The notes beneath the pieces are model-generated. The model was not told where the DNA came from. It was given only the letters and a program-made list of their open reading frames with translations, and made no database searches. Source: Candidatus Doudnabacteria bacterium (GTDB lineage: Bacteria; Patescibacteriota; Doudnabacteria; UBA920). Taken from it: a stretch of 64,000 nucleotides of DNA. Below, one piece after another: positions 13,310 to 51,445 of this stretch. How positions within the stretch are numbered: the stretch's first letter is position 1; the number at the start of each line of letters is the position of its first letter. The stretch covers positions 1,199 to 65,198 of the forward strand of contig JBBRMG010000002.1 of NCBI GenBank assembly GCA_038230955.1, read 5' to 3'. Position numbers and translations under genes: made by a program.

Positions 13310-15367
13310 ATGAAATTCAAGATCAAAACTGAATATAGCCCGGCGGGCGATCAACCACAAGCAATCAAGGGGCTACTCAGTTCTTTGGCGGATGGTTACC
13401 GGCACCAGACGCTACTCGGCGTCACCGGTTCCGGCAAAACATACACCATGGCTAACGTGATTGAGAAAATCCAAAAACCAACTCTAATAATGTGTCACAA
13501 CAAAACTTTGGCCGCACAATTAGCTTCCGAATTCCAGCACTACTTTCCTGACAATGCCGTGCACTACTTCGTCTCCTACTACGACTACTACCAACCTGAA
13601 GCCTATATCGCTCGATCCGACACTTACATTGAAAAAGAAACCACAATTAACGAAGAGATTGACCGACTACGGAATGCCGCCACACAGTCTTTGCTGTCAC
13701 GGCCAGACACGCTAATTGTGGCTTCCGTTTCCTGCATCTACGGTTTAGGTAACCCGGCTAATTATTTGGAGTTGTCTTTGGAAATAAAAAAGGGGCAGAG
13801 TTTAAAGCGAGACCGTCTGCTGCGTCGCTTAACGGATTTACAATTCTCGCGTAATGATTACGATTTGCACCGCGGTACTTACCGCGTTCAGGGCGATACT
13901 ATTGAAATTGTTTTAGCTTCGGAGGACACTATTATTCGTCTGAAATTTTTTGGTGATGATGTTGAAGAAATAGAACGTCTCCACATGATTACTGGCGAGA
14001 CGTTAGAAATGTTAGAAAAAGTGAAAATTTTCCCAGCTAAGCATTTCGTGACCCCAGAAGACAAAATGCCCATTGCTCTAGACCGCATTCGAGAAGAACT
14101 ATTGGGGCGCTTAGCTGAATTACGAACACAAGGCAAAATACTGGAAGCCGCTCGATTAGAACAGCGCACTAACTTCGACCTAGAAATGCTCACAAATACT
14201 GGGTTTGTCTCTGGGATTGAAAACTACTCCCGCCAAATGGAAGGGCGCGAACCCGGCGATCCTCCATCTACATTAATCGACTATTTCCCTGATGACTTCC
14301 TTTTAATGATAGACGAGTCGCATCAAACCATCCCTCAAATTGGTGGCATGTACGAAGGAGATAAATCGCGCAAAACCAATTTGATTGATTACGGTTTTCG
14401 TTTACCCTCAGCGTTAGATAATCGACCGTTAAAATTTGCCGAATTTGAAAACAAAATTGACCAAGTAGTGTTTGTATCAGCAACCCCCGGGCCTTATGAA
14501 ATTCGCAAAAGCTTAGATGAGAATTTTAAAGTCACCGACAAAAAGAAAACAATTATCAAAAAAGATTTAAGCAAAATTGCCATCGTCGAACAAATTAATC
14601 GCCCAACAGGATTAATAGACCCGACCATAGAACTACAGCCCATTAAAAACCAAGTAGACCATTTGTTAGAACAAATTCGCATTCGAATAGATTGCGGTGA
14701 GCGAGTCATTGTGACCACACTATCCAAACGAATGTCGGAAGAGTTAACCGAATACATTAAAGAGGCCGGGATTAAAGCACAGTACTTACACTCAGAAATT
14801 GAAACGTTCGAACGTCTAGAAACTCTGCGCGATTTGCGTCTCGGAGTTTATGATGTGGTCATTGGGATTAACTTACTGCGCGAAGGATTAGACTTACCGG
14901 AGGTGTCGTTGGTAGCAATCCTCGATGCGGACAAAGAAGGGTTTTTACGTTCTGAAACAGCGTTCATGCAAATCATGGGGCGCGCCGCTCGTCATTTGAA
15001 CGGCCACGTTATTATGTATGCTGATCGCATTACTAAGTCCATGCAAGCTGCCATAGATGAAACTACTCGGCGGCGCAAAATTCAAGAAGCATACAACACC
15101 GAGCATGGCATTACGCCAAAAAGCATCATCAAAAAAATTGCCGACTCAAGGCTTAGTGGCAGTCACCAAACTGCTGAAGATGACGGCTACCAAGGGGTAG
15201 AGATAGATCCATCTAAGTTGGACGCCACTCAGCTCAAATACTATGTCAATGAGCTCAATGACCGAATGGAACTGGCCGCTAAAGATATGGAATTTGAGCT
15301 GGCGGCACGGTTGCGGGACCGAATTGCCGAAATCAACAAAGTAAGGAAACTGAAGAAAAAGACCTAG
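13310..15367 (+). CDS. uvrB: excinuclease ABC subunit B
   Basis: LLGVTGSGKTYTMANVI, helicase motifs and a C-terminal UVR domain (ELAARLRDRIAEI). Confidence 0.95.
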   Translation: MKFKIKTEYSPAGDQPQAIKGLLSSLADGYRHQTLLGVTGSGKTYTMANVIEKIQKPTLIMCHNKTLAAQLASEFQHYFPDNAVHYFVSYYDYYQPEAYIARSDTYIEKETTINEEIDRLRNAATQSLLSRPDTLIVASVSCIYGLGNPANYLELSLEIKKGQSLKRDRLLRRLTDLQFSRNDYDLHRGTYRVQGDTIEIVLASEDTIIRLKFFGDDVEEIERLHMITGETLEMLEKVKIFPAKHFVTPEDKMPIALDRIREELLGRLAELRTQGKILEAARLEQRTNFDLEMLTNTGFVSGIENYSRQMEGREPGDPPSTLIDYFPDDFLLMIDESHQTIPQIGGMYEGDKSRKTNLIDYGFRLPSALDNRPLKFAEFENKIDQVVFVSATPGPYEIRKSLDENFKVTDKKKTIIKKDLSKIAIVEQINRPTGLIDPTIELQPIKNQVDHLLEQIRIRIDCGERVIVTTLSKRMSEELTEYIKEAGIKAQYLHSEIETFERLETLRDLRLGVYDVVIGINLLREGLDLPEVSLVAILDADKEGFLRSETAFMQIMGRAARHLNGHVIMYADRITKSMQAAIDETTRRRKIQEAYNTEHGITPKSIIKKIADSRLSGSHQTAEDDGYQGVEIDPSKLDATQLKYYVNELNDRMELAAKDMEFELAARLRDRIAEINKVRKLKKKT

Positions 15368-16182: not shown

Positions 16183-16449
16183 ATGCCTAATACCAAGTCC
16201 GCGGCCAAAGCGATGCGCCAATCAGCCCGTCGCCACGTCGCAAACCTCAAGACCAAAGCTAAGGTCAAAGACGCAACCAAAAAAGTTCGCAAGAGCTTAG
16301 AAGCCAAGTCTGCCACCGAAGCCACCGCTGCATTACGTGGCGCCATGGCCGCTCTCGACAAAGCTGCTAAGAAAGGCGTCATTCACAAGAACACTGCCTC
16401 TCGCAAAAAGTCCCGCATGGCCAAGGCCATCGCCAAACTTTCTAAGTAA
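16183..16449 (+). CDS. rpsT: 30S ribosomal protein S20
   Basis: 88 aa, basic and Ala/Lys-rich. AAKKGVIHKNTASRKKSRM matches the S20 C-terminus. Confidence 0.9.
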   Translation: MPNTKSAAKAMRQSARRHVANLKTKAKVKDATKKVRKSLEAKSATEATAALRGAMAALDKAAKKGVIHKNTASRKKSRMAKAIAKLSK

Positions 16450-16523: not shown

Positions 16524-17537
16524 TTATTTCTTGCTAATTAAATTAGCAATCAGCTGAACCATCACTTCTTTGTGGTCCGGCTTGCTTTCGGCAACCAAGA
16601 GCGCTATAGCCGTCAAAGCGTTATCAGAAATAATCCGCTCCCCTCTCCGATTATACACTCGATTGTTCTCTACTAAATATAACAGAAACAATAACGAACC
16701 AATGCGCTTGTTGCCATCAGCAAATGGATGATCTTTAATAGCGAAGTACAACAGATGCGCCGCTTTTTCTTCCATTGTTTGATACAGTACTTTGCCATCG
16801 AATGTTTGTTCAATATTTCCCAGCAATGCTTTTAGTTTATCTCCCACCTGTTTGCCAAATAAATCGCTGGCCTGCTTATCTTTCATTAAGCGAGCACGAA
16901 ACCGATCTACTGCTTTTGTTACTTTCTCGTGATCTAACGCCGCAATAACTTTCTTCGTACCTTTTTCCAAAACCAAATCATCTTTGTCATACTGATACAA
17001 CGTCGCCCAAGTATTGGCGTAGTCGGTAATAATATTGAGCACTTCCTTTTCATAACCTTCCAGCTGTTTGTTCTGAATAGCCGTTTGAATTAGGGAAACA
17101 GCCCCCTGCAGTTCTTTGACTTTAGCGACATTCTGATCTTTCAATCGCTGCTGGTTTACGGCGTACCCTTTTAGTAGATAATCACGCAGCCGCTGAGTGG
17201 CCCATATGCGGAACTGGGTGCCGCGTTTGGAATTAACTCTGTAGCCGACCGAAATAATCATGTCGATATTATAGAACTCAATTTCACGCTCTACTTGCCG
17301 TTTTCCTTCCATTTGAACTATCCGGAATTTCCGGATAGTTCGATTTTGGCTTAATTCAGACTCTTTATATACATTTTTAATATGTTCATTAATAGTTCTC
17401 AAGTCTTTACCAAACAATTCTGCCATCTGAGCTTGACTCAACCAAACAGTTTCATCTACAAAATTAACACGAATAACGGGACCTTCGTCAGTTTTATATA
17501 TTTCTATCTCACCTGTTTTAGGTTCATTTTTCCCCAT
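16524..17537 (-). CDS. RhuM-family protein with a C-terminal Fic/Doc domain
   Basis: N-terminus AQMAELFGKDLRTINEHIKNVY...IRKFRIVQMEGKRQVEREIEFYNIDMIISVGYRVNS is RhuM-like. C-terminus HPFADGNKRIGSLLF is the Doc/Fic HxFx(D)GNKR motif. Confidence 0.75.
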   Translation of the reverse strand: MGKNEPKTGEIEIYKTDEGPVIRVNFVDETVWLSQAQMAELFGKDLRTINEHIKNVYKESELSQNRTIRKFRIVQMEGKRQVEREIEFYNIDMIISVGYRVNSKRGTQFRIWATQRLRDYLLKGYAVNQQRLKDQNVAKVKELQGAVSLIQTAIQNKQLEGYEKEVLNIITDYANTWATLYQYDKDDLVLEKGTKKVIAALDHEKVTKAVDRFRARLMKDKQASDLFGKQVGDKLKALLGNIEQTFDGKVLYQTMEEKAAHLLYFAIKDHPFADGNKRIGSLLFLLYLVENNRVYNRRGERIISDNALTAIALLVAESKPDHKEVMVQLIANLISKK

Positions 17538-17655
17538 ATATTTTCTGATTACACACTACTACTCAAGAGTAACATACTCAAGATAAAATTTCGTTAAAGC
17601 TTTTGTAAATTCTATATAAAATTTCAGTTATACGGAAGCCCCCCGGTAGCTCACC

Positions 17656-18396
17656 TCAATTTATAAAAGGCTTCGCTGCTTGCCAGGCCATATCAAACAT
17701 CGCTTTCATGGTACCAACAATACTGACATCTTCAATGCGTACTACAAACAAGTTATTCTCGTGAATGCGAAACAGTGCCATGACATTGCCGTATATTGCA
17801 CTGTCGTTTTCAATCCCCTCTTTTGTGGCCAGTCTCGAAGAGTAATGCTTGCCCGCGGTTAAGGCATATCGCTTGGAACTACGGCGGGTTTCTGGGGTAT
17901 CAGCAATAATTTCCCGAGTTCGAATTTGATTCTGCTCAATAGTTTCGCTTAAGTGCGTAAAAGTATTGTGGAAGATATGTTCAAAAGTGGCTAAGTTAGT
18001 CCAAAATCTAATGTTGTTAGCCTGGCTAATTTCATCGTAAATTTGTTCCATCCCTTTTTTCCCGACCAATACACGCACCCCAGGCCGTCCCTGTTCCGCG
18101 TTTTGTATAGCTCGCAACTCTGGCATTGCCGCTTGCACGGCCTGCAGTTGCTCTTGCGCCCTTAGCTCCAGCAATTCCGGATTGGCTGGATAATAGTATT
18201 CTTTTTTCCCGAGCGGCACCTTCTCCAATAAGCCGTCTTTCATGAGTTGCTGGATATGAATGTAAGCTGTGGGACGTTTTAAATCAGCCTTTTGAGCCAG
18301 TGTTTGAACCGATGCCGTGCCTAAAGATAATGCTGCTAGGTAGATTTTAGCAGCTTTTTCATCAAACCCGAGGGTGGTTAATGTATTAGAATCCAT
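17656..18396 (-). CDS. TrmB-family transcriptional regulator (copy 1)
   Basis: N-terminal wHTH LGFDEKAAKIYLAALSLGTASVQTLAQKADLKRPTAYIHIQQL and a C-terminal effector domain ending MAWQAA. Start taken at MDSNTL (18396) rather than the ORF-track 18483. Confidence 0.75.
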   Translation of the reverse strand: MDSNTLTTLGFDEKAAKIYLAALSLGTASVQTLAQKADLKRPTAYIHIQQLMKDGLLEKVPLGKKEYYYPANPELLELRAQEQLQAVQAAMPELRAIQNAEQGRPGVRVLVGKKGMEQIYDEISQANNIRFWTNLATFEHIFHNTFTHLSETIEQNQIRTREIIADTPETRRSSKRYALTAGKHYSSRLATKEGIENDSAIYGNVMALFRIHENNLFVVRIEDVSIVGTMKAMFDMAWQAAKPFIN

Positions 18397-18424
18397 ATCA
18401 AAAGTATGGATTTTTTTTATTATT

Positions 18425-18443
18425 TTGTCAATAAAACTGACAA
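18425..18443. promoter_or_regulatory. palindromic candidate operator TTGTCA-N7-TGACAA
   Basis: ttgtcaataaaactgacaa lies between divergent TrmB copy 1 and the binding-protein gene at 18576. Confidence 0.45.
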
Positions 18444-18575
18444 AAATAAACAATATTAAGCAATATATCCCAATAAATGGCAAGTTATTATCCTATAATC
18501 AGTTTTGTCGTTAATTTTTCTGTCATTCTCTGCTATTCTTGTTCGTTAAACATTAATCAATAAGGAGCATGATAA

Positions 18576-19685
18576 ATGACTAGATATATCAAGGTATTAA
18601 TTATTGTTGTAGTAATTGTGGCAATTGCAATAATCGCTCATGGCATTACTGACAAAACCACTCCCGCAGCCAGCCAGGCTGGCTTAAAGATAGGATCCAT
18701 CCTGCCTTTAACTGGGGACTTCGCCTCATTCGGCAGCGAAATCAATCGGGGCGCAGAAATAGCGGTGGATGAAGCCAGACAGTCTGGCATTAATATAGAG
18801 TATGTTAGCGAGGATGATCGATCGGAACCCACCAAGTCAGTCGATGCGGCTAACAAGCTAGTTCACGCTGACAACGTAGACGTCGCCTTTACTGCCACCG
18901 TGCAGGAAGTAAAACCTACCGCGCCGATATTCAACAATGGCCAGACACCACTGATTGCAGTATGGGATAGCAATGACTTTATTAAAACCGCTGGCTCAAG
19001 CATCTTTACTACCGGCTTTGGCACGGAAGCCGCTGGTCAAACAATGGCTCGGCACGCACACAATACTTTAGGCTTACAAAAAGTAGCTGTCATACCAATG
19101 AAAGATGACTGGTCTAGCTTGATTGCCGATGCCTATATAAAAGAATTTACCAAGCTGGGTGGCACAGTTACCATGAGCGAACAAACAAGCGCTAACCAAA
19201 AAGATTTTCGCACTCTAATTGCCAAAGCCCAAAATTCTGGAGCAGAAGGAATCTATGCACCACTGTTGCCTCAAGCCGGTGGTCCATTCCTAAAGCAAAC
19301 AAGAGAATTAAACTTCCATGGACCAATCATGATGGGCGATAGTTTTTCTCAGAACGATGTCAATGTCGCCAACGGTGCAGCTGAGAATGTCTACTTCACC
19401 AATTTGTACGCCAGCCAGACTGACCAGTTATCAGCCAAGTACAAAGCTAAGTTCAGCGCTACCCCGAGTGACCCAATCTTTGTCTCATTCGGCTACGACG
19501 CCATTAAAACTATTATTGCAGCACATCACAAAGCAATCGATGATAAAACATCCATTAAGCAAGCGTTACTTAACACGAAATTGCAAGGCACTGGCACTCT
19601 GATTAATTTTAACGGCAAACAATATTCGGAGCGATTAGAAAAACTGTACCAAGTGAAGAATGGACGGTTCATCGAGATAAAGTAA
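18576..19685 (+). CDS. periplasmic-binding-protein type 1 (Leu/Ile/Val-binding-like) solute-binding protein, orphan
   Basis: Signal/TM N-terminus then LKIGSILPLTGDFASFGSEINRGAEIAVDE, typical of the LivJ family. No permease or ATPase adjacent. Confidence 0.75.
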   Translation: MTRYIKVLIIVVVIVAIAIIAHGITDKTTPAASQAGLKIGSILPLTGDFASFGSEINRGAEIAVDEARQSGINIEYVSEDDRSEPTKSVDAANKLVHADNVDVAFTATVQEVKPTAPIFNNGQTPLIAVWDSNDFIKTAGSSIFTTGFGTEAAGQTMARHAHNTLGLQKVAVIPMKDDWSSLIADAYIKEFTKLGGTVTMSEQTSANQKDFRTLIAKAQNSGAEGIYAPLLPQAGGPFLKQTRELNFHGPIMMGDSFSQNDVNVANGAAENVYFTNLYASQTDQLSAKYKAKFSATPSDPIFVSFGYDAIKTIIAAHHKAIDDKTSIKQALLNTKLQGTGTLINFNGKQYSERLEKLYQVKNGRFIEIK

Positions 19686-19715
19686 GATAAAAGCCACCAG
19701 TTGCTGGTGGCTTTT

Positions 19716-20450
19716 TTACTCCATGACCTCTGCCGATCGCCAAGCCAACTCAAATAATGTTTTCAAAGACTGCGATACCTCGCGACTGGTAATCATTACT
19801 GCAAACAGTTCAGGCTGAAAAGAAAAAAATACTACACTATCACCAAACAATGCACTATCTGTCGGAAACGTTAAGCCAATAGGCACAAAACGGAATTGGT
19901 GATTCGGCATTTTCTGCGCCGCCTGGCGATACTCATCATCTTGAGGAGAATGAATAATTAACTCTTTTACTTGAATTCGCTTTTCACTAATGTTTTTTAA
20001 AAAACTTGCCAGTCCCTCGGGAAACATTTTTGCTACTTCTTGCGTAGTGCCAAACAGTGATACTCCACCTGAATTAAATATTTTTTCATAGACCTGCCTA
20101 ACCCCTTCTTTACCTTCATACAACTGCACTTGGGGTTTATCTTTTCGCTTGTTAAAAGAAGCTAATAATTGTGGGAGTGAGTGACTAAGTAAGTCCTGTT
20201 TCTTTTTTAAATCAAAGCTCAATTGCTCAGGTGATTCCGCAGCATACAAAATTTTCTTGTTGCGGGGAATTACATTGACCAAACCCTTTTGTTTTAGCTC
20301 ATCCAATACTAAATAAGTAGTCGGGCGTTTGATTCCCGCTTTCTGGGCAATTCCGTAAACAGAAGCTGTCCCTAGTTCCAATAAAGCCACATAAACGCTG
20401 GCTTGTTTTTCGTTTAGGCCTAATTTTTCCAATACTTCAATCATATCCAT
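19716..20450 (-). CDS. TrmB-family transcriptional regulator (copy 2)
   Basis: LGLNEKQASVYVALLELGTASVYGIAQKAGIKRPTTYLVLDEL wHTH. C-terminus ends LFELAWRSAE. Confidence 0.75.
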   Translation of the reverse strand: MDMIEVLEKLGLNEKQASVYVALLELGTASVYGIAQKAGIKRPTTYLVLDELKQKGLVNVIPRNKKILYAAESPEQLSFDLKKKQDLLSHSLPQLLASFNKRKDKPQVQLYEGKEGVRQVYEKIFNSGGVSLFGTTQEVAKMFPEGLASFLKNISEKRIQVKELIIHSPQDDEYRQAAQKMPNHQFRFVPIGLTFPTDSALFGDSVVFFSFQPELFAVMITSREVSQSLKTLFELAWRSAEVME

Positions 20451-20477
20451 AAATATATTATGACTGTTATTAACAGT

Positions 20478-20496
20478 TTGTCAACTATTCTGACGA
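20478..20496. promoter_or_regulatory. palindromic candidate operator TTGTCA-N7-TGACGA (second half-palindrome at 20553-20568)
   Basis: ttgtcaactattctgacga, plus tgtcagtagaattgac downstream. An adjacent perfect 15-nt palindrome actgttattaacagt is at 20463-20477. Confidence 0.45.
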
Positions 20497-20646
20497 ATTA
20501 ATATCGATATCAGTATTTTGCTTTAAATAAGTCATTTATAAGTTATTAGTAATGTCAGTAGAATTGACTATAACACTATTTTGTTATATAATCTGCTGTT
20601 AAATAAAAACAAAAAGGTTTCATCAATCATTAAGAACCAAAGAATC

Positions 20647-21819
20647 ATGAAGAATATGAAATGGACAGTAGCAGTGGTTATCGTACTGGCCTTAGTGGCA
20701 CTACTAGTAGCAAAGAATAATCATCAGCAGAAAGCTCAGCTTGTGGCAGAGAGATGCGATTCCGGTGACACCATTAAGATCGGGGCCGTGTATACTTTTA
20801 CGGGTAACCTGGCTGACATCGGTGAGTCATTCCGCGAAGGTACTGAAATAGAGAAAGACCAAATTAATGCCGCCGGGGGTATTAACGGAAAAAAGATTGA
20901 GATAATTTACGAAGACGCACCTGATTTCGCCGGCAAGCCTGGAGTAGACGCAGTGCATAAACTAGTATCGCAAAACAAAGTTTGCGCTGTGCTAGATTTT
21001 GTTTACGGTAGTCTCGGTGGTATTAATAGTTTTGCTGAAAAGAACCAAGTACCCATTGTCGACCCGCTGGACTCGTCCGACAAAATTGCTGGGTTTGGTG
21101 ACTGGGTATTCAGTAGCGGTGTGTACGACGACGGCATCGGCACCCATGTCGCTGAATTTGCCAAGAATGAAAAGGGAATCGATAAAGTGTCAATGCTGGT
21201 GGGGCAAGATGAATATCTTTTATCTGTAGCAAGTGGTTTCGAAAAAACATTTAAAGCAGGTGGTGGCCAAATCACTGATCGGGAAGAGTTTGTAATCGGC
21301 ACTACTGATTTTAAAACCTCATTGTCTAAACTAATCCAAAGTGGCGCCCAAACAATATTCATTGGCCACATAGGCGAGGGTGGCATAATTGTGAAGCAAG
21401 CCCGCGAACTCGGTTTTAAAGGTACGTTTCTTGGAACTGATACTTTCAGCTTAGCTGACGTACAAAGAGTAGGTGGCTCGTTACTGAACGACAACTTGTA
21501 CTTTGCGTTATGGCGCAACTTTGATGCCACTACAAAGGACCAGGATCAGTTTTCCAAAGCATTCCTGGCAAAATACAACAAAGCCCCCGGTGATTACATG
21601 TTTTACAACGTACTTGGTTACGATGGCTTAAAAGTAATGGCTGAAGCAATTAGTAAGTCGGACATGACCGGGGGCAGCATAAAGGACCAACTGTACAAGA
21701 TAAATAATTTCCAGGGATTAAGTGGCCCAATTACCATTACACCAGAGGGAATTAATAAAGACCCTAAATCCGCCATGGTAATGTACAAAGACGGCAAGAT
21801 TGTTCGTTACCAGAAATAG
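20647..21819 (+). CDS. periplasmic-binding-protein type 1 solute-binding protein, orphan (copy 2)
   Basis: TM/signal then IKIGAVYTFTGNLADIGESFREGTEIEKDQINAAGGINGKKIEI. Start taken at MKNMKW. Confidence 0.75.
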   Translation: MKNMKWTVAVVIVLALVALLVAKNNHQQKAQLVAERCDSGDTIKIGAVYTFTGNLADIGESFREGTEIEKDQINAAGGINGKKIEIIYEDAPDFAGKPGVDAVHKLVSQNKVCAVLDFVYGSLGGINSFAEKNQVPIVDPLDSSDKIAGFGDWVFSSGVYDDGIGTHVAEFAKNEKGIDKVSMLVGQDEYLLSVASGFEKTFKAGGGQITDREEFVIGTTDFKTSLSKLIQSGAQTIFIGHIGEGGIIVKQARELGFKGTFLGTDTFSLADVQRVGGSLLNDNLYFALWRNFDATTKDQDQFSKAFLAKYNKAPGDYMFYNVLGYDGLKVMAEAISKSDMTGGSIKDQLYKINNFQGLSGPITITPEGINKDPKSAMVMYKDGKIVRYQK

Positions 21820-21830
21820 ACCGTTATAAC

Positions 21831-21856
21831 AAAACTCCCCGGTTACGGGGAGTTTT
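21831..21856. terminator. bidirectional terminator
   Basis: aaaactcccc-ggttac-ggggagtttt between the convergent binding-protein gene and polA. Confidence 0.6.
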
Positions 21857-24695
21857 GTTCCACCCTTTTCATTTGGCCCCAATTATCACCAACCTTAGCT
21901 TCGGCGGTAACCGGTACGGTCAGTTTAATAGCGGACTCCATTAGCGGTTTTATTATTTCTATCCATTTGTCTACGGCGCTCTCTTGGACCTCAAACACTA
22001 ATTCGTCGTGGACTTGCAACAACATGCGAATTTCATCACCTAACCCTGCGATTTCTCTGAAAATGTTAAGCATGGCGATTTTTAACACATCGGCCTGTAG
22101 ACTCTGGATAGGGAAATTTACAGCAGCCCGTTCCGCTGCGGCGCGAATAAAGAACTGCGACGACTTTACTTCAGGGAACTTGCGAGTGCGCCCCAGTTCG
22201 TTCTTCACTAACGCATCGCGGTTGACATCGACTTTAACACTATCTATGTATTGCTTCACTTGGGGATAGGCAGCGAAATATTTATTAATAAACTCCTTGG
22301 CCTCGGCGTTAGTCACAGCGCCAATGCGACTAGACAGACCAAAACTGGACAGACCGTACAACACTCCAAAGTTAATGGTCTTAGCATCACGGCGCATATC
22401 GTCGGTCAGCCCTTCATCACCCACCCCAAATATGGCTCTCGCTGTGTTAGCGTGAATATCTTCTTTGTTTTTAAACACGTGCATCATATTTTTGTCCTGC
22501 GACAAATGAGCGATAATTCGCAGTTCCATTTGCGAGTAATCTATGGAAACAAGTTTGTATCCCTTTTCGGCCACGAACGCTTTGCGAATTTCCGCACCCA
22601 AGCCTGTGCCGCGCACTGGAATATTTTGCAAATTTGGATCAATCGATGACAGTCGGCCCGTCGCGGCAATAGTTTGATTGTAACTAGTATGAATGCGCCC
22701 CGTGGCTGGATTGACTTGCAACGGCAACGCTAGTAAGTAAGTCGATTGCAACTTCGACAGTTCTCGATAATTCAAAATCTTTTCAATAATGGGATGCTCA
22801 CCTAATAAGTATTCCAGCACACCCGCTGCAGTAGACAGTCCTGTTTTGTTTTTCTTTCCTGAAGTTAAGCCGAGTTTATTGTAAAGAATTTCGCCTAACT
22901 GCTTTGGGGAGTTTAAATTAAATTCTTCGTCCGCTAATTTATAGATGTCTTGTTCTAGGTCATTAATCTGATTTTTTGCATCTTCTGACAGCCGAGCAAC
23001 TAAATCAATATCTAACTTGATTCCCCAGCGCTCCATATTGGCTAGCACCGGAATAAGCGGCATTTCAATCTCACGAAAAATTTTGTCTAAGCCTTCTTTT
23101 TTCAGCTCTGGTTCAAAAATTTCTTTTAGTCGCAAAGTAATGTCAGCATCTTCAGCGGCATACCAACTAACCTTTTCTACATCCACTTGGTCCATGGTAA
23201 TTTGGTTCTTACCTTTGCCAATTAAATCTTCAATTGGTTGCATCTGATAACCAAGTTCATTGAACGCAGCAGCATCTAAGCTGTGTTTACGGGTACCAGC
23301 GTTCAGTAAATAAGATGCAATCATAGTGTCGAATGCTGGATTCTCCAGTTTGATGTTCTCGTTTTGCAGCACTAACAAATCATATTTAATGTTGTGGCCA
23401 ATCTTAGCGGCATTACTGGCAATCAGTTTTTTTAACGCTTCGCTTTTCGTAACGATGTTAGCAGGAACATAATAAGCTTCGCCTGGTTTAGTAGCCAATG
23501 ACACGCCTACCAACCGGGCTACGATTGGGTTCAAGCCTGTGGTCTCAGTATCGATAGCTAAATCAGTATTTTTGTCAGTGGACTTAGTAATTTTCTTCAA
23601 AACTTTATCGAGTTTTTCTAAACTGTCGAGCAATTGATAATCCTGTTTAAAATCAACCAGCTTCACGGCCTGAGGCACTAATGGCGCATCCACAGCGCCT
23701 TCATCTTTAGTGGCGGATTTTGCTGTGCCCTTGGATTTGGCTTTAATTTCCGCTGATGCTTCCACTGCCGGCAGCTCTTTAGCCCCAATATAATCTTTGG
23801 GCAACTTGTCTATTAAACTCCGAAACTCCAACTCCTGGAATAATTTCATGGTAGCAGTTAAATCAGCCTGCTTAAATTGGTACGGTTGAATATCAATATC
23901 GAGCGGCACATCGCAAACAATCTTCGACAAGAAATAAGATTGATCCGCCTCTTTCTCACCGTCAATCAACAACTGCAAAATACGCGGCTTAATTTTATCG
24001 CCGATCTTACCAGCTTTTATCGCCGCGTACAATTTTTGCAAAGAGCCAAAATCTTGAATTAACTGGCCAGCGGTTTTTTCACCAATACCACGCACACCTT
24101 TAATATTATCTGATGGATCACCACGCAAAGACTTATAGTCGATCATCTGTAAGGGAGTTAAACCATAGCGGTCTTTCACAGCTTGTTCATCATAAATAGC
24201 AGTATCACCAATGCCTTTACGCAACGTATAAATTTTCACGCACTTATTCACGAGCTGAAGCGCATCTAAATCGCCGGTGACAATCATAACATCGCAGTTG
24301 TCCTGAGATTGTTTGCACAGCTCGGTAGCCAAAGTACCCAGAACGTCATCAGCCTCAAACCCTTTCACTTCAAAAATTGGAATATTTAACAACCGCGCCA
24401 CTTCTTTCACCCGAGGGAACTGATCATACAATTCCTGTGCCGCTTTTACCCGAGTCCCTTTGTACTCAGCGTAACTATCGTGCCGAAAAGTCGGACCAGC
24501 TAAATCAAAAGAGCAAGCAATGTGCGTCGGTTTTAAGTCTTTAATCGCGCGGAGCAGTATCATTGTAAATCCGTAAACTGCATTAGTCTGTTCCCCCGAC
24601 TTTGAGGTCAAAGCCGGAATAGCATGAAAGCCCCGATGAACCAGGGCATTGCCGTCTATCAACATATATCGTTTATCCGCTTTTTTCTTTGGCAT
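21843..24695 (-). CDS. polA: DNA polymerase I
   Basis: 950 aa. 5'-3' exonuclease N-terminus. Polymerase motifs RRDAKTINFGVLYG and QVHDELVFEV. Confidence 0.95.
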   Translation of the reverse strand: MPKKKADKRYMLIDGNALVHRGFHAIPALTSKSGEQTNAVYGFTMILLRAIKDLKPTHIACSFDLAGPTFRHDSYAEYKGTRVKAAQELYDQFPRVKEVARLLNIPIFEVKGFEADDVLGTLATELCKQSQDNCDVMIVTGDLDALQLVNKCVKIYTLRKGIGDTAIYDEQAVKDRYGLTPLQMIDYKSLRGDPSDNIKGVRGIGEKTAGQLIQDFGSLQKLYAAIKAGKIGDKIKPRILQLLIDGEKEADQSYFLSKIVCDVPLDIDIQPYQFKQADLTATMKLFQELEFRSLIDKLPKDYIGAKELPAVEASAEIKAKSKGTAKSATKDEGAVDAPLVPQAVKLVDFKQDYQLLDSLEKLDKVLKKITKSTDKNTDLAIDTETTGLNPIVARLVGVSLATKPGEAYYVPANIVTKSEALKKLIASNAAKIGHNIKYDLLVLQNENIKLENPAFDTMIASYLLNAGTRKHSLDAAAFNELGYQMQPIEDLIGKGKNQITMDQVDVEKVSWYAAEDADITLRLKEIFEPELKKEGLDKIFREIEMPLIPVLANMERWGIKLDIDLVARLSEDAKNQINDLEQDIYKLADEEFNLNSPKQLGEILYNKLGLTSGKKNKTGLSTAAGVLEYLLGEHPIIEKILNYRELSKLQSTYLLALPLQVNPATGRIHTSYNQTIAATGRLSSIDPNLQNIPVRGTGLGAEIRKAFVAEKGYKLVSIDYSQMELRIIAHLSQDKNMMHVFKNKEDIHANTARAIFGVGDEGLTDDMRRDAKTINFGVLYGLSSFGLSSRIGAVTNAEAKEFINKYFAAYPQVKQYIDSVKVDVNRDALVKNELGRTRKFPEVKSSQFFIRAAAERAAVNFPIQSLQADVLKIAMLNIFREIAGLGDEIRMLLQVHDELVFEVQESAVDKWIEIIKPLMESAIKLTVPVTAEAKVGDNWGQMKRVEQNSP

Positions 24696-36481: not shown

Positions 36482-37570
36482 TTATTGATTTTCTTCCTCT
36501 TGGACGCTTGGGGCCAAAGTCACATGTTGACCGGCCATTTCTAAGGGGTGAGTGGTGGTAATGAAAGTCTGGAACTTCCCTTGTAAATATTTAAGTAAGA
36601 ATGTTCGCCGGGTTTCATCGAGTTCAGACAAAACATCATCTAGTAGTAAAATTGGCTTATCATCAACCTGAGTCAGGTACTCCAGTTCCAAAATTTTTAG
36701 TGCCAGAATCTGACTGCGTTGTTCACCGCGGGAAGAAAAGGAGCTTAGGTACAACCCCTCGCTTTGTAGGGAGAAATCATCTCGGTGTGGTCCTACCAAA
36801 GAAGTGCCGACAATTTGTTCTTTATTTTTTACCTCTGCCAGACGCTCGGTAAAATTCCCTACAATCTCTTCTTCAGTCTCACCAAGAATGCTGTCATAAA
36901 CCACCTCAACTGTACGATGAAACTTGGAAATAGCTGTATAGACTTCGGAAATATTTTGATTAAGGAAATTTATAAACCGTTTACGCTCCATAACTATTCG
37001 ACTGCCAACTTCTACTAATTGCATATTCCATGGGTCGACATCTTCGGGTCGTGCGCTCCCTAACTTAATATCAGTGAGCAAACGATTTTTCTGCGATAAT
37101 ATCCTTTTGTAATTTGTCAGGTCTTCTAAGTAAGATAAACTTTTCTGCGACATCACCATATTTAAATACTTGCGCCGGGCTTCCGGTGGCTTTGAAAAAA
37201 TATCTACATCAGTAGGTTCAAAAATTACTACCCTCATAAACCCTTGGGCTTCTTTTCGTTTCTTTTTTACGCCATCGATTTTAAAATTAGCATAGATCTT
37301 ATCACGCTTTTCCAAATAAATATCTAGCTGATGATCTTCCCCCTCACGCTCCAGTAACATTTTTATTTCGGCGGCAGCGCTCCCTTTTAAGAAAATAAAT
37401 TCTGCGTCATCTCGAAAAGATTTAAATAAAGAGGCAAAATAAACTGATTCCAATAAGTTAGTTTTTCCCACTGCATTTGGACCAGAAAGCACCACCATGT
37501 CACTGGTGATATTAAGGCTTAGGTCGGGGTAGTTGCGGAAGTTTTTGATCTCGATATTCTTGATTCTCAT
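36482..37570 (-). CDS. recF: DNA replication and repair protein RecF
   Basis: MRIKNIEIKNFRNY...LSGPNAVGKTNLLES. Confidence 0.9.
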   Translation of the reverse strand: MRIKNIEIKNFRNYPDLSLNITSDMVVLSGPNAVGKTNLLESVYFASLFKSFRDDAEFIFLKGSAAAEIKMLLEREGEDHQLDIYLEKRDKIYANFKIDGVKKKRKEAQGFMRVVIFEPTDVDIFSKPPEARRKYLNMVMSQKSLSYLEDLTNYKRILSQKNRLLTDIKLGSARPEDVDPWNMQLVEVGSRIVMERKRFINFLNQNISEVYTAISKFHRTVEVVYDSILGETEEEIVGNFTERLAEVKNKEQIVGTSLVGPHRDDFSLQSEGLYLSSFSSRGEQRSQILALKILELEYLTQVDDKPILLLDDVLSELDETRRTFLLKYLQGKFQTFITTTHPLEMAGQHVTLAPSVQEEENQ

Positions 37571-37583
37571 AAGTTTATTGGAA

Positions 37584-38681
37584 TTATCCTTTAATTGGCA
37601 TAACTAAATACATGTAATCATTGTCGCCTTGGGGCACAAATATAACAGGGGCGTTCTCATCAACCACCTTCACTGTAATGGCTTCAGCGGTCACAACTGA
37701 CAGAACATCGAGAACATAACGATAGTTTAGCATCACTGTGCCGGCCGTTCCACTAATCTCTGCGGGGACCTCTGCCACGCTCTCCCCTACATCATGTGAG
37801 ACTGCGCTCACGACCATGCTTTGCTTATCAGCATCATATGACATTGTGACTGTCCCTGTTCCCCGTGAAAATATACCACTTGTCTTTAGCGCAGATGATA
37901 ATGCTTGCCGTTCTACCAAGATTGTAGCATTAAATGCTTCGGGGATAATCTGCTTATAATCTGGGTACTGTCCGTCAATTAAGCGGCTGACTAAGTAACT
38001 GTCACCAACACTAACGGTCATCTGGCTATCGGCAATAATCACCGAAACATCATCCGTAAACCCATTCAATAATCTAGATATCTCTGCCGCTGTTTTGTGT
38101 GGAATGATAACTTGCTTTTCCAACTCTGATGATTCAACAATGATGGTTCTTTCGGCCAGTCGGTATCGGTCTGTGGCTACCAGTTTTAGGTTTCCTTTTC
38201 CGGGTTGAATCAGTATTCCTGAAATTTCCGGTTGTGATTCACTGGTGCTCGCTGAGAAAACAACTGAGTCTAAGGCATTTTTCAGGGCGGCCCCATTACA
38301 TTTTATTTGCGATCCGTTTTCGACTATTGGGATGGGGGGGAATTCTTCACTTGGTAAAGTTTTTAGTTTGGTTGAATAATGTTCAGTGATAATGCTAATT
38401 TCCCCGTCTTTATTATCCAAAGTTATATTCGTGCTCGGCAAACTGTTTATTAAATCTGTTAGTGTCTTTGCGGGGATGCTCACGCTGCCCTCCTGATCAA
38501 TTTTACAGCGGATGGTTGTGCTGATTGCCACCTCTAGGTTTGTTCCGACCAGTTTAAGCTGCCCATTTTCGGTGGTCATCAAAATACTATTCAGGATTGG
38601 TAGAGTGTTGCTCGTGCCGATAACCCTTCCGACGGTGGCAAGCCCATTCTTTAAATTTTCTTGGGTGCAAACAATTTTCAT
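37584..38681 (-). CDS. dnaN: DNA polymerase III subunit beta (sliding clamp)
   Basis: 365 aa with typical beta-clamp N-terminus. Sits between dnaA and recF. Confidence 0.9.
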   Translation of the reverse strand: MKIVCTQENLKNGLATVGRVIGTSNTLPILNSILMTTENGQLKLVGTNLEVAISTTIRCKIDQEGSVSIPAKTLTDLINSLPSTNITLDNKDGEISIITEHYSTKLKTLPSEEFPPIPIVENGSQIKCNGAALKNALDSVVFSASTSESQPEISGILIQPGKGNLKLVATDRYRLAERTIIVESSELEKQVIIPHKTAAEISRLLNGFTDDVSVIIADSQMTVSVGDSYLVSRLIDGQYPDYKQIIPEAFNATILVERQALSSALKTSGIFSRGTGTVTMSYDADKQSMVVSAVSHDVGESVAEVPAEISGTAGTVMLNYRYVLDVLSVVTAEAITVKVVDENAPVIFVPQGDNDYMYLVMPIKG

Positions 38682-38900
38682 TGTTGTTATTAATTAATTT
38701 AAATAAATAGTAGTAATAGTAATAAGGGCTGGGGATTTGTGGATGGGTGGAATATCGGCAATGTTTATAGGCAGTTTCCCGTTTCTGGTATGTTGGTATC
38801 TCAGTGCACAAAGGGCGGGTAGAGCTGTGGATGTTTGGGGGTAATTATTAGGTGCGCTACATGGCTGTGTATATACTCAGTTTTTATTAAGTGCTTATCA
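38682..38900. other. probable oriC (dnaA-dnaN intergenic): AT-rich DNA-unwinding stretch plus DnaA boxes
   Basis: TGTGGATgg at 38737-38745 and TGTGGATgt at 38825-38833. AT-rich tract 38682-38725. Confidence 0.55.
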
Positions 38901-40271
38901 TCAGGTTATATACAACTTATCCAGTATCAAATCTAATTCCTGTTTTACGGTTTCATTGGTGCTGACAATGTTTTCAATTTTATCAACGCCGTGCATTACA
39001 GTTGTGTGGTCTCTTCCTCCAAAGAACTCGCCAATGGTAGGGAATGAGCTATTGAGTTCTTTTCGTGAGATGTACATTGCTACCTGTCTCGGTTTAACAT
39101 ATTCCTTACGGCGGGATTGTTTAATCAAGTCTTCAATTGTGATGTTGTAGAATTCAGCGACTGACAGAGCAATTTTTTTCAGACTAAGAACTTTCTTTTT
39201 TGCACTCATCATGTTGGCCAAAATTTGTTTTGCTCTGTCCATGGTCAGAGGAACATTTTCCATTTGTTGGAAGACAATTAGGCGATTCAATGCACCTTCT
39301 AACTCTCTTATATTACTAACAACATGCTCAGCTATAAATTCAAGGATGTCATCGGGGATATTTACCCCCCGCTTTTGTACTTTAGAATTAAGTATTGCTA
39401 ATCGTGTTTCCATATCCGGCGCTTGAACATCTGCTACCATCCCCCATTCAAACCTAGATATTAACCTTTGTTCGATTGACGTAATATCTTTTGGCTGACG
39501 ATCGGCGGTGAGGATAATCTGCTTGCCTTTGTCGCGAAGCTCATTAAATGTATGAAAGAATTCTTCTTGCGTTCCTTCTTTACCGGCGATAAACTGAATA
39601 TCATCAATTAGCAACATATCTACCGAGCGATAGATTTTCTTAAACTCATCCATTTTTTTATGGCCAATTGCATATACGTAGTCATTAGTGAATTTCTCGC
39701 TAGTGACGTACAAGACTTTACTCCGGGGATTATCGTGCATCAATTTATTGCCGACAGCGTGCATTAAGTGGGTTTTTCCTAAGCCCACGCCACCGTAAAT
39801 AAATAACGGATTGTACTGTGAACCAGGGTTTTTGCCCACTGCATTACTAGCAGCGTTGGCCAGTTCATTATGCTTGCCAATGACAAGGGTGTCGAAAACG
39901 TATTTGGGGTTTAAACTGCCAGTTGCTGCAGCTGACGTTTCTTTATGTTGATTTTGAAAATCTGTGGTCGATTGTGAGTCTACTCGTTGGCGGTCGACTT
40001 TTGGTGAAGAGCTGGGTTCAGGTCGGGCCTGGCCTACATGATATTTCACTTCTCGGATCTCTGGGCTGATTTGTTTAAGTGTTTTAAGAAGTTCATTGTG
40101 AAATTTTTCGGATATCCACTTACGGATGAACTCGCTAGGCACTCCGACAACTATGCCGTCCTCTGTTCTTTCTAGAATGGAAGTGCCTTTAAACCAGGTG
40201 TTAAAGTTGCCTCGGCTAATTGATACTTCCAGACTGCCTAATATTGATTGCCAGAGTTGTCCGTTTGTCAT
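38901..40271 (-). CDS. dnaA: chromosomal replication initiator DnaA
   Basis: NPLFIYGGVGLGKTHLMHAVGN AAA+ region and a C-terminal DNA-binding domain. Confidence 0.95.
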   Translation of the reverse strand: MTNGQLWQSILGSLEVSISRGNFNTWFKGTSILERTEDGIVVGVPSEFIRKWISEKFHNELLKTLKQISPEIREVKYHVGQARPEPSSSPKVDRQRVDSQSTTDFQNQHKETSAAATGSLNPKYVFDTLVIGKHNELANAASNAVGKNPGSQYNPLFIYGGVGLGKTHLMHAVGNKLMHDNPRSKVLYVTSEKFTNDYVYAIGHKKMDEFKKIYRSVDMLLIDDIQFIAGKEGTQEEFFHTFNELRDKGKQIILTADRQPKDITSIEQRLISRFEWGMVADVQAPDMETRLAILNSKVQKRGVNIPDDILEFIAEHVVSNIRELEGALNRLIVFQQMENVPLTMDRAKQILANMMSAKKKVLSLKKIALSVAEFYNITIEDLIKQSRRKEYVKPRQVAMYISRKELNSSFPTIGEFFGGRDHTTVMHGVDKIENIVSTNETVKQELDLILDKLYIT

Positions 40272-40336
40272 GTTTTTTTCAGGATTTCAAGTTTTATTTA
40301 AGGTTTTTTCAAGATATTCCCCATTGTAACAGGCAC

Positions 40337-40414
40337 TTATCAACATGTAAATAAAAGAAATATAACGCTTATATAAAGCCGTAAATAGTGGTTATGTGAA
40401 TATGGTGTGGAAAA
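40337..40414. other. DnaA-box-like cluster upstream of dnaA (second origin module)
   Basis: TTATCAACA (40337-40345), TTATGTGAA (40392-40400), TGTGGAAAA (40406-40414). Confidence 0.4.
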
Positions 40415-40448
40415 CTATTGAATTTTTGTGTATATCTTTTTTGAAGGA

Positions 40449-40477
40449 TTGACGGTGGCTCAATAAATTAGTATAAT
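40449..40477 (+). promoter_or_regulatory. sigma70-like promoter (TTGACG-17-TATAAT) for rpmH
   Basis: Consensus hexamers with a 17-nt spacer, ~30 nt before rpmH. Confidence 0.55.
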
Positions 40478-40506
40478 AGTCAAAGAATTGTTAATTATTG
40501 TCACTC

Positions 40507-40641
40507 ATGAAGAGAACCTACCAGCCGAAAGTAAAGCGCAGAAAAAGAGTGCACGGTTTCCGTAAACGTATGCAAACCAAGCCCGGAAGAAACGTGTTAG
40601 CCCGCCGCCGTCTGAAAGGACGCAAACGTCTAACTGTTTAA
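40507..40641 (+). CDS. rpmH: 50S ribosomal protein L34
   Basis: [44 protein letters not shown]. 44 aa, below the ORF-track cutoff. Confidence 0.95.
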
Positions 40642-40647
40642 CCCAAT

Positions 40648-40989
40648 ATGTTAAAAAAGAACTACCGCCTAACCAAAAGCAAGGATATCCAACAGACCTC
40701 CATGCGGGGGCGGAGTTTTTTTAACCCCCTTTTTGTGCTTAAATATCGAGCCGCATCTTTAGTTGAGCCGCGGTTTGGGTTTATTGTTTCAACAAAAGTA
40801 TCTAAACGGGCAGTGGAACGTAATCGCATAAAAAGGGTTGCGAGGGAACAAATCCGCTCCATTATTACTGACTTCAAAACCGGAGATTATGTTATCATTG
40901 TAAAGTCTAAAGCATCTGGGAAAACACCCACCGAATTACGGGCTTCCCTATCACAGCTTTGTCAGTCATCTAAGCTTTTGAATCTATGA
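40648..40989 (+). CDS. rnpA: ribonuclease P protein component
   Basis: FGFIVSTKVSKRAVERNRIKRVAREQIR. Confidence 0.88.
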   Translation: MLKKNYRLTKSKDIQQTSMRGRSFFNPLFVLKYRAASLVEPRFGFIVSTKVSKRAVERNRIKRVAREQIRSIITDFKTGDYVIIVKSKASGKTPTELRASLSQLCQSSKLLNL

Positions 40990-41255
40990 ACAAGACTATT
41001 TTAATACCCAGACAAATAGCATTGGTGTTAATCAGGATATATCAGAAAACACTATCACCGGACCACGGGCTGTTCCGAGCACGTTACCCTCACGGGTTTT
41101 GTCGTTACTATCCATCTTGTAGTCAATATGGATACGATGCTATTAGTCGCTATGGTTTGATTCGCGGAGGCCTTATGACAAGCTGGAGAATATTGCGTTG
41201 CAACCCATGGACTAAACCCAGCATAGACCAAGTGCCAACGCGAGCAACAATTTAA
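40986..41255 (+). CDS. yidD: membrane protein insertion efficiency factor YidD
   Basis: CRYYPSCSQYGYDAISRYGLIRGGLMTSWRILRCNPW. Confidence 0.88.
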   Translation: MNKTILIPRQIALVLIRIYQKTLSPDHGLFRARYPHGFCRYYPSCSQYGYDAISRYGLIRGGLMTSWRILRCNPWTKPSIDQVPTRATI

Positions 41256-41278
41256 ATTAATCATTATCTATTTTTCTC

Positions 41279-42004
41279 ATGTTACTACATCTGTACTCTG
41301 AAATTATTTATCGCCCAATATTAAATGTCTTAGTGTTCTTGTATAACATTATTCCCGGACATGATGTTGGTTTGGCGATCATCGCCGTGACTGTCCTAGT
41401 GAGAATAATTCTGGCGCCTTTTATGCACCGTTCATTGAAGAGCCAACAAGCGATGACTGCTTTACAACCAAAGATGAATGATTTACGGGAGCAACATAAG
41501 GATAATAAGGAAGAGCAAGCAAAAGCCATTATGGCTTTATACAAGGAACACAAAGTTAATCCTTTGGCTTCTTGCTTACCGCTCATCATACAGCTACCAA
41601 TTTTAATTGCCCTATATCAAGTATTAGCCAAAGCATTAAGAGGAAATCTAGATGGCCTATATCATTTTGTTCACAACCCAGGTCTCTTAAATCCAAAAAT
41701 GTTTGGATTGATAGATTTGTCTCACCCAAACTTTATTTTTGCTATTGCAGCGGGACTAGCTCAGTTCTGGCAGTCTAAACTAATGACCGCCTCTAACACC
41801 CCTAGCACAGATCCGACAGCTAAAATGATGAACGTTCAAGTGATGTATATTTTGCCATTGATTTCTGTATTCATTGCTTGGCGCTTACCAGCTGGGTTGC
41901 CGTTGTATTGGACCACCACCACTTTGCTGTTAGTCCTGCAGCAAAAATATATTTCTAAGGCAGATCTAAGTACTATCAACTCAACAGCCACTGTTGTTAA
42001 ATAA
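41279..42004 (+). CDS. yidC: membrane protein insertase YidC (short form)
   Basis: YidC/Oxa1 core (LAPFMH...KMNDLREQHKDNKEEQAKAIMALYKEHKVNPLASCLPLIIQLPILIALY). Confidence 0.9.
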   Translation: MLLHLYSEIIYRPILNVLVFLYNIIPGHDVGLAIIAVTVLVRIILAPFMHRSLKSQQAMTALQPKMNDLREQHKDNKEEQAKAIMALYKEHKVNPLASCLPLIIQLPILIALYQVLAKALRGNLDGLYHFVHNPGLLNPKMFGLIDLSHPNFIFAIAAGLAQFWQSKLMTASNTPSTDPTAKMMNVQVMYILPLISVFIAWRLPAGLPLYWTTTTLLLVLQQKYISKADLSTINSTATVVK

Positions 42005-42009
42005 GAACG

Positions 42010-42474
42010 ATGACTGACTACGACAAAGCTGAACAAGTTAAATTGTTAATTCAGAACCTTCTTTCACAAGGCGGTTTTCAGGCCCAAGTTGAATATGAAG
42101 ACAGCTTGCTCAAAGGGCTAGTGTTTAACATTAGCACCCGGGAATCACGTTCCCTTATTGGTCGGCAAGGAATGACCTTGCATGCATTGGAAATTCTAGT
42201 TCATGCATTAGCGGCCCGTACTTTTAAAGGAGAACTATTTCGATTTTCTTTGGACGTCGATGATTATAAGCGTAAGCGTGAGTGGTCTCTAAAAGAGTTG
42301 GCTCGTGAGACTGCAGGAAAACTACAAGCTACAGGTAAGTCTATCGCTTTAGAACCAATGCCCAATTACGAACGCCGCATTGTTCATGCTTACTTACAAG
42401 AAAATTATCCGGAGATTGTTAGTGTCAGTGAGGGCGTGGATCCTAATAGAAAGATTGTTGTTAGTTTGAAGTAG
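42010..42474 (+). CDS. jag: Jag/KhpB RNA-binding protein (KH + R3H)
   Basis: LIGRQGMTLHALEILV (KH) and PMPNYERRIVHAYL (R3H). Confidence 0.85.
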   Translation: MTDYDKAEQVKLLIQNLLSQGGFQAQVEYEDSLLKGLVFNISTRESRSLIGRQGMTLHALEILVHALAARTFKGELFRFSLDVDDYKRKREWSLKELARETAGKLQATGKSIALEPMPNYERRIVHAYLQENYPEIVSVSEGVDPNRKIVVSLK

Positions 42475-51430: not shown

Positions 51431-51445
51431 TACTAATAAAGCTTT

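Follow-up and report, generated by a model that had tools for sequence, protein, structure and literature searches.

Does a palindrome that is shared by two neighbouring regulator genes mark a cassette of regulator and solute-binding protein, or does it belong to the regulator? The question is raised by a locus of an ultrasmall member of the Patescibacteria, Candidatus Doudnabacteria (assembly GCA_038230955.1, contig JBBRMG010000002.1, positions 1,199 to 65,198), analysed here as a window of 64,000 nucleotides. The locus consists of two consecutive divergent gene pairs. In module 1, TrmB1, a TrmB-like winged-helix regulator of 246 amino acids (17656–18396, minus strand; PF01978, E = 2e-10), faces away from PBP1, a membrane-anchored LivJ-like solute-binding protein of the HAAT family (18576–19685, plus strand; PF13458, E = 5e-44). 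In module 2, TrmB2, a TrmB-like regulator of 244 amino acids with TrmBL2-type architecture (19716–20450, minus strand; PF01978, E = 2e-17), faces away from PBP2, a second membrane-anchored LivJ-like protein of the HAAT family (20647–21819, plus strand; PF13458, E = 2e-49). An initial annotation had read the two modules as a repeated sensory and regulatory cassette with a common operator. Its genes and motifs were all confirmed in position by the list of open reading frames, Pfam scans and sequence reading. The comparative analysis leads to a different meaning of the motif. The operator belongs to the regulator, and binding proteins are a recurrent but minority partner of TrmB-like regulators. 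TrmB1 and TrmB2 are probably local autorepressors that block the −35 hexamer of their own promoters; in the TrmB2 lineage the divergent gene would be co-repressed.

The palindrome of module 1, operator O1, reads TTGTCAATAAAACTGACAA on the forward strand and TTGTCAGTTTTATTGACAA on the TrmB1 strand (18425–18443). It starts 47 nt before the TrmB1 ATG and is the only perfect match to TTGTCA-N7-TGACAA in the window. O1 of module 2 (TTGTCAACTATTCTGACGA forward, TCGTCAGAATAGTTGACAA on the TrmB2 strand; 20478–20496) starts 46 nt before the TrmB2 ATG. Module 2 has a second operator, O2 (ATGTCAGTAGAATTGACTA, 20552–20570), 74 bp from O1 centre to centre. O2 corresponds to the additional TGTCA-N7-TGAC that had been listed at 20553–20568. 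Each site in the window reads GTCAG-N5-TTGAC in the direction of its own promoter. With up to one mismatch, TTGTCA-N7-TGACAA has two matches in the 64 kb, both intergenic, against an expectation of 0.26; two matches were reached in 3 of 100 shuffles. Exact GTCA-N7-TGAC occurs four times in the window, with three occurrences inside the two intergenic regions. For the significance of the palindrome, the window alone is suggestive and the comparative sequence data are decisive.

A protein search with TrmB2 yielded 307 homologues, nearly all from Patescibacteria. The genome scan provided 80 TrmB2 loci from Doudnabacteria, Parcubacteria, Moranbacteria, Uhrbacteria, Magasanikbacteria and others, which were inspected over about 4 kb on either side of each homologue. 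Of the 78 loci in which the upstream sequence was long enough, 63 had TTGTCA-N7-TGACAA, with at most one mismatch, within 300 nt upstream of the regulator start; only four such sites were present in all the other 557 kb of these loci. Counted from its first base, the site was most often 47 nt away from the regulator ATG. Because picking sites by the full pattern is circular, a test anchored on the right half was run: every TTGAC upstream of a regulator, in regulator orientation, was scored for TGTCA at exact N7 spacing. The distal arm was present at 65 of 88 anchors upstream of TrmB genes (74%) and at 20 of 1160 anchors elsewhere (1.7%). It is therefore under selection beyond the needs of a promoter. 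As had been proposed, the palindrome is a true cis-element under selection, and it goes with TrmB-like regulators. A second conserved site, T[A/T]GTCA-N7-TGAC[T/A]A, lies upstream of O1, at a distance of 72–75 bp in 33 of 42 loci (most often 73 bp), and O2 of module 2 matches it. On the other strand this site contains TTGACT, followed by a −10 box at the right distance, and so forms a divergent promoter. Some loci have inserts in these regions. In L012, L019, L023 and L053, a GC-rich element starting with AAACTGGATCCCGGCT separates the conserved promoter from the start codon of TrmB and shifts the operator to 107–194 nt upstream. In L006, a GC-rich, hairpin-prone insert is located between the second site and the binding-protein gene. 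The inserts of these five loci look like small repeated insertion elements.

The aligned upstream regions have a fixed layout around the palindrome. Its right arm and the preceding base form a TTGACA hexamer, followed 16–17 nt on by a TATAAT- or TATACT-like box and about 6–7 nt later by the ATG. The consensus across the 63 homologue loci is TTGACAaAAT...TAtA.T. In a promoter scan of positions 17500–21900, the top three promoter-like sites were those of TrmB2, PBP2 and TrmB1. The predicted TrmB1 promoter (18403–18431, minus strand) has −35 TTGACA at 18431–18426, a spacer of 17 nt and −10 CATACT at 18408–18403 (10 of 12 matches). The predicted TrmB2 promoter (20457–20484, minus strand) has −35 TTGACA at 20484–20479, a spacer of 16 nt and −10 CATAAT at 20462–20457 (11 of 12 matches). 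The predicted PBP2 promoter (20564–20592, plus strand) has −35 TTGACT at 20564–20569, inside O2, a spacer of 17 nt and −10 TATAAT at 20587–20592 (11 of 12 matches). The second motif copy of module 2 thus lies over the promoter of PBP2.

The distance from the −10 box to the A of the ATG is exactly 6 nt for TrmB1, TrmB2 and TrmB3, a third TrmB-like regulator of the window. Transcription is therefore expected to start at or beside the start codon, and the regulator mRNAs are predicted to be leaderless. Homologue alignment and promoter geometry also place the TrmB1 start at the ATG at 18396; the gene itself had been located correctly, and its end had been set too far upstream, at a TTG at 18483. 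Translation of PBP2 more likely begins at the ATG at 20647 (or 20656) than at the TTG at 20581, as this TTG precedes the predicted start of transcription. A 15-nt palindrome, ACTGTTA-T-TAACAGT (20463–20477), fills the spacer between −35 and −10 of the TrmB2 promoter exactly. No other copy is present in the window, and the homologue loci show no conservation of the spacer. This palindrome could be the site of a second regulator, for example an SOS-type box, or a product of chance.

The TrmB1 subfamily comprises 87 homologues from Patescibacteria with 40–85% identity. An O1-type site was found at the same position in the TrmB1 orthologues of L081, L083, L094, L100 and L101, and a variant in L084. 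The orthologues keep the same promoter geometry. A convincing second operator was found neither in the TrmB1-PBP1 region of the window nor in the TrmB1 orthologues. Two candidates for a PBP1 promoter are present: a perfect TATAAT at 18494–18499 that lacks a good −35 hexamer, and the palindrome's CTGACA arm, paired with a weak −10 box. PBP1 is preceded by a Shine-Dalgarno-like AAGGAG at 18563–18568. Module 1 has the putative autoregulatory operator only, and control of PBP1 by TrmB1 is therefore uncertain.

If the palindrome were the operator of a regulon and the pairs were dedicated sensory cassettes, in which the regulator responds to a solute captured by the binding protein, as the initial annotation had it, binding-protein genes should accompany the motif. 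Divergent pairs of TrmB and binding protein do recur, in L006, L081, L090, L092, L093/L094 and L095. A metagenome scan with an alignment of three binding-protein sequences revealed 11 PBP1-like loci. On this side of the search, a TrmB gene diverged from a binding-protein gene in L090, with three consecutive modules, and in L092, L093/L094 and L095. L086 and L087 had three tandem binding-protein genes and no detected TrmB. In L081, the order was TrmB/binding protein, binding protein/TrmB1 orthologue, TrmB/radical-SAM and then UvrB. Among the homologues of TrmB2, the commonest identifiable partners were binding proteins of the NMT1 type (three adjacent, five within two genes). The overlap of O2 with the PBP2 promoter also fits such a cassette, and reference titles in PMC4877046 present the founding TrmB as local regulator of a cluster for a binding-protein-dependent sugar ABC (ATP-binding cassette) transporter.

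The view from the regulator is a different one. LivJ-like binding proteins stood beside the regulator in one of the 80 TrmB2 loci (L006); the other 79 lacked them and the operators were still kept. The operator is almost absent beyond the upstream region of the regulator. In L006, the PBP1 orthologue has neither TrmB nor site. A divergent upstream open reading frame is present in 65 TrmB2 loci, and these genes form many small families, most of them without a Pfam match. Identifiable neighbours include methyltransferases, an O-antigen-ligase/TPR protein, tyrosyl-tRNA synthetase and small secreted proteins. The partners of TrmB1 and TrmB3 orthologues are varied as well. The operator is hence fixed in the regulator's own promoter whatever the neighbour, and is not the signature of a cassette with a binding protein. 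Among the divergent partners of TrmB2 homologues, secreted proteins of about 195 amino acids without a Pfam match recur (L001, L011, L024 and L030), with signal peptides ending in AQ(T/S) or similar. UvrB is convergent downstream in 19 TrmB2 loci, in agreement with the position of uvrB in the window.

A comparison between regulator subfamilies indicates which protein reads the operator. TrmB3 (49669–50430, minus strand; PF01978) belongs to a separate subfamily, the largest with 866 homologues, and resembles TrmB1 and TrmB2 in the helix-turn-helix region only. It is divergent from a polar amino-acid type ABC operon of SBP_bac_3, permease and ABC ATPase genes (50594–53210, plus strand; PF00497, PF00528 and PF00005). 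Its operator, TTGTTGACAATTTATCAACAA (TTGTTGA-N7-TCAACAA, 50448–50468), is the only exact GTTGA-N7-TCAAC of the window. It overlaps the −35 TTGACA at 50465–50460, with −10 TAGAAT at 50442–50437, 6 nt and the ATG. In L097–L099, the palindrome is kept as TGTTGAcAATTTtTCAACA, together with the TTGACA, the −10 box and the leaderless-type placement of the start codon. A second TrmB3-type element, GTTGATATATTATTGACAA, lies with the predicted promoter of the ABC operon at 50509–50549 on the plus strand (−35 TTGACA at 50521–50526, −10 TATAGT at 50544–50549). An element TGTTGA-N-ATTGACAA over the divergent promoter is conserved in L097–L099. A palindrome related to that of the two modules had been noted at TrmB3. 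Its conservation in orthologues holds at four of four loci; its identity with the operator of the modules does not, as both the sequence, GTTGA-N7-TCAAC, and the recognition helix differ. The TrmB3 site is analogous to the TrmB1/TrmB2 site and is not shared with it.

The recognition helix KRPTxY of TrmB1 and TrmB2 pairs with GTCA-N7-TGAC, and NRTTVY of TrmB3 with GTTGA-N7-TCAAC. In L090 and L092, where the intergenic regions were read by eye and by script, the TrmB proteins have the helix KR(T/S)TVYE, which pairs with a direct repeat, TTGACG-N5-TTGACA. That the operator would be read by the TrmB-like protein itself is best supported by this covariation of operator and helix. The TrmB genes of L090 and L092 adjoin binding-protein genes, so there is not one operator for all such pairs, and a motif common to all cassettes is not supported by these loci. 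The direct repeat (L090 1090–1275 and 3200–3330; L092 560–900) is located at the promoter position of the TrmB1/TrmB2 inverted repeat. Here too, a −10 box comes next, and the position of the ATG is that expected for a leaderless mRNA. A direct repeat in place of an inverted repeat implies a different binding geometry within one family.

The architecture of the regulator proteins bears on the proposed sensory function. The PF01978 bit scores of TrmB1, TrmB2 and TrmB3 are 40.8, 63.0 and 49.4, all above the gathering cut-off of 25.6. A profile of 22 TrmB2 homologues had its best PDB profile match in Pyrococcus furiosus TrmB (3qph; residues 2–156, E = 2e-6). In the AlphaFold model of TrmB2 (mean predicted local distance difference test score 84), a winged helix is followed by a long helix (residues 74–102), which the profile alignment to 3qph also covers, and by an alpha/beta C-terminal domain. 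Its best full-length Foldseek match was TrmBL2 (5bpd, E = 1e-14), and the C-terminal domain matched Nuc and NucT of the PLD family (E = 1e-6 to 1e-7). TrmB and TrmBL2 share three parts, the winged helix, the dimerisation helix and the PLD-like domain at the C-terminus; TrmB and TrmBL1 have an additional sugar-binding subdomain, which is absent from TrmBL2, and TrmBL2 is tetrameric (PMC4877046). In the proteins studied here, the TrmB-type winged helix-turn-helix, the long amphipathic dimerisation helix (residues 74–102) and the PLD-like C-terminal domain were all found. The sugar-binding subdomain was not: the proteins of 244–253 amino acids align end to end with the TrmBL2 of 260 amino acids. 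By domain, helix and modelled fold, TrmB1 and TrmB2 belong to the TrmB family and are outside its sugar-sensing subgroup. They represent two old subfamilies of a TrmB-like family of about 245 amino acids that is specific to Patescibacteria. A sensory role, as had been suggested, finds no support in this short TrmBL2-type architecture. The missing effector-binding subdomain also stands against a regulator that responds to the captured solute, and together with the neighbour-independent operator and the different element in L090 and L092 it makes the dedicated sensory cassette an unlikely explanation.

The binding proteins themselves are of the LivJ type. Both have the Peripla_BP_6 domain (PF13458) with the type 1 periplasmic binding fold, as in binding proteins of the HAAT family, and an N-terminal hydrophobic anchor. 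PBP1 matched branched-chain amino-acid binding proteins in the PDB, and the best PDB match of PBP2 was the branched-chain amino-acid binding protein 4gnr (E = 4e-33). Open reading frames with at least four transmembrane segments flanked the binding-protein genes neither in the window nor in 12 of 13 related loci. The sole exception, an open reading frame in L086 (21–725), overlaps another one and is ambiguous. A Liv-type permease was not present among the scanned open reading frames of the window. Adjacent LivH/LivM permease and LivG/LivF ATPase genes were absent from the window and from 12 of the 13 related loci, and the description of PBP1 and PBP2 as orphan binding proteins holds locally; a partner may be encoded elsewhere in the genome.

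Autorepression by TrmB1 and TrmB2 is the most likely mechanism behind these observations. The −35 hexamer of the predicted sigma-70-type promoter is the promoter-proximal arm of a 19-bp operator, T-N-GTCAG-N5-TTGAC-N-A in promoter direction. A regulator dimer on this operator would keep RNA polymerase from the −35 hexamer, so that the gene represses itself; this is the best supported step, with binding deduced from the comparisons above. For the TrmB2 lineage, where O2 lies about 73 bp or seven helical turns away, binding of another dimer to O2 may repress the divergent gene, here PBP2. Both sites might be occupied cooperatively, or a TrmBL2-like tetramer might bridge them, which is speculative. 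Module 1 would retain the autoregulatory operator alone. The divergent cargo gene was exchanged many times in evolution, with solute-binding proteins as a recurrent minority cargo.

Several points weigh against this mechanism. The TrmB-like protein is proposed as the binder of the site from co-occurrence and covariation, and the leaderless mRNAs are predicted with promoter geometry as sole basis. In module 1, an operator over a recognisable PBP1 promoter was not found, which leaves half of the two-module claim without a regulatory link. The regulators may have targets beyond the approximately 4 kb around the homologues. A ligand pocket was not identified in the C-terminal domain of the regulator, and relief of repression is hard to explain. 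The operator, centred near −38, could also fit a class II activator.

The last point leads to the proposal that TrmB-like proteins are activators of the class II type, acting over the −35 of their own and of the divergent gene. The operator centre, about 38 nt upstream of the predicted start, is near the positions of class II activators, and a possible PBP1 start after the TATAAT at 18494–18499 would put the site of module 1 about 72 nt upstream, in a class I-like position. A good −35 hexamer is usually missing from activator-dependent promoters; those of TrmB2, PBP2 and TrmB1 have near-consensus −35 and −10 hexamers, with the 11, 11 and 10 of 12 matches given above. Archaeal TrmB and TrmBL2 are mainly described as repressors (PMC3031468 and PMC4877046). 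An activator function is, in our assessment, quite improbable. That the palindrome is a promoter feature of −35 and upstream element to which no dedicated regulator binds is suggested by the identity of the proximal arm with the −35 hexamer and by the direct −35 copy that serves as distal element in some subfamilies, and is nevertheless very improbable in view of the distal TGTCA at exact spacing (74% versus 1.7% elsewhere), the variation of the element with regulator subfamily and recognition helix, and its presence at TrmB genes and not at other promoters of the same loci.

The autorepressor reading can be extended, tentatively, to a portable control unit that occurs throughout the Patescibacteria. 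The unit would combine a leaderless, self-repressing TrmBL2-like gene with back-to-back promoters and two operators, bridged by a tetramer over about 73 bp, and would have captured varied genes for binding proteins, secreted proteins and enzymes. We regard this extension as possible and rather doubtful in its full scope. If true, the unit would be a main form of local gene control in small genomes that encode few regulators, and a ready-made repressible promoter for genetic tools in Patescibacteria. To our knowledge, experiments have so far revealed hardly anything about how Patescibacteria (Candidate Phyla Radiation) control transcription. A regulator/operator pair with strong comparative support is now available, for which exact promoters, leaderless starts and an invariant two-operator geometry are predicted. 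Because the promoters are near the sigma-70 consensus, these predictions are testable in Escherichia coli as well as with purified protein. The motif marks the regulator, which corrects its interpretation as the mark of a binding-protein regulon.

The arrangement of the window allows some statements on the origin of the modules. TrmB1 and TrmB2 share 29% identity over the full length, and PBP1 and PBP2 share 31%. The tandem duplication that had been proposed is ancient; a recent event is rejected, as the paralogues are only 29–31% identical and closer orthologues of each exist in other genomes. Extra copies of TrmB or the binding proteins were not found by tblastn within the 64-kb window. The convergent gap between PBP1 and TrmB2 contains a hairpin of 12 pairs followed by a T run in the terminator scan (19689–19715), probably a bidirectional terminator. 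The convergent genes PBP2 and polA also have a hairpin between them, AAAACTCCCCG-GTTA-CGGGGAGTTTT (21831–21856), overlapping the stop codon of polA. Given these two hairpins, the four genes of the modules seem to be transcribed as four separate units.

Both cassettes sit between uvrB (13310–15367) and polA (21843–24695). TrmB cassettes appear to have a hotspot here (L081, L084). A gene of the Fic/RhuM family (16524–17537, minus strand) is located between rpsT (16183–16449) and TrmB1. Since a TrmB gene and uvrB are directly convergent in 19 related loci, the Fic/RhuM gene with the genes around it resembles an insertion between uvrB and polA. Further along, the window contains the neighbourhood of a replication origin (36482–42474), with recF, dnaN and dnaA (36482–40271, minus strand), followed by rnpA, yidC and an R3H-domain (Jag-like) gene (40648–42474, plus strand). 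A stand-alone open reading frame with an HNH endonuclease motif (60341–60856, minus strand; PF13392, E = 4e-6) lies among housekeeping genes and may be the remnant of a mobile element.

Literature searches on TrmB in Patescibacteria, Candidate Phyla Radiation or Saccharibacteria and on leaderless mRNAs of Patescibacteria did not reveal a description of this TrmB-like family or its motif. The regulatory logic of an autorepressor with a divergent target is classical and no new principle. The predicted leaderless regulator mRNA, the −35 embedded in the operator, the fixed two-operator spacing of about 73 bp and an operator that stays constant in many lineages of Patescibacteria while the target is swapped appear to be undescribed.

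Known systems share parts of this arrangement. LivJ and LivK of the HAAT family resemble PBP1 and PBP2 in the Peripla_BP_6 match and in the matches to solved LivJ-like proteins. Their systems differ by the adjacent LivHMGF-type permease and ATPase genes, which PBP1 and PBP2 lack; a hydrophobic helix at the N-terminus serves PBP1 and PBP2 as an anchor. TrmB of Thermococcus litoralis and Pyrococcus furiosus (3qph) shares PF01978 and is the best PDB match at the level of sequence profiles. This archaeal protein is larger, with about 340 amino acids and a further, sugar-binding subdomain at the C-terminus, and it acts on promoters with TATA box and B recognition element (TATA/BRE). The published TrmB sites that we know of differ from GTCA-N7-TGAC. 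TrmBL2 of Thermococcales (TK0471/PF0496) has the same length class of about 260 amino acids, the same domain order and likewise no sugar-binding subdomain, at 17–20% identity to the proteins described here. TrmBL2 is an abundant chromatin protein with little sequence specificity that forms filaments, whereas the regulators of Patescibacteria have a sharply defined 19-bp site at their own promoter. Because this site is sharply conserved, specific rather than nonspecific binding is favoured. The closest likeness in logic is to the autoregulated winged-helix repressors of bacteria of the MarR/IclR type: a dimeric winged-helix protein, a palindromic operator over the −35, autorepression, and control of a divergent neighbour from back-to-back promoters, predicted here from sequence. 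The TrmB-like regulators differ from them by the PLD-like fold of the effector domain, the predicted leaderless mRNA of the regulator, two operators at a fixed distance of about 73 bp and an operator that is the same in many lineages of Patescibacteria while the target gene is swapped.

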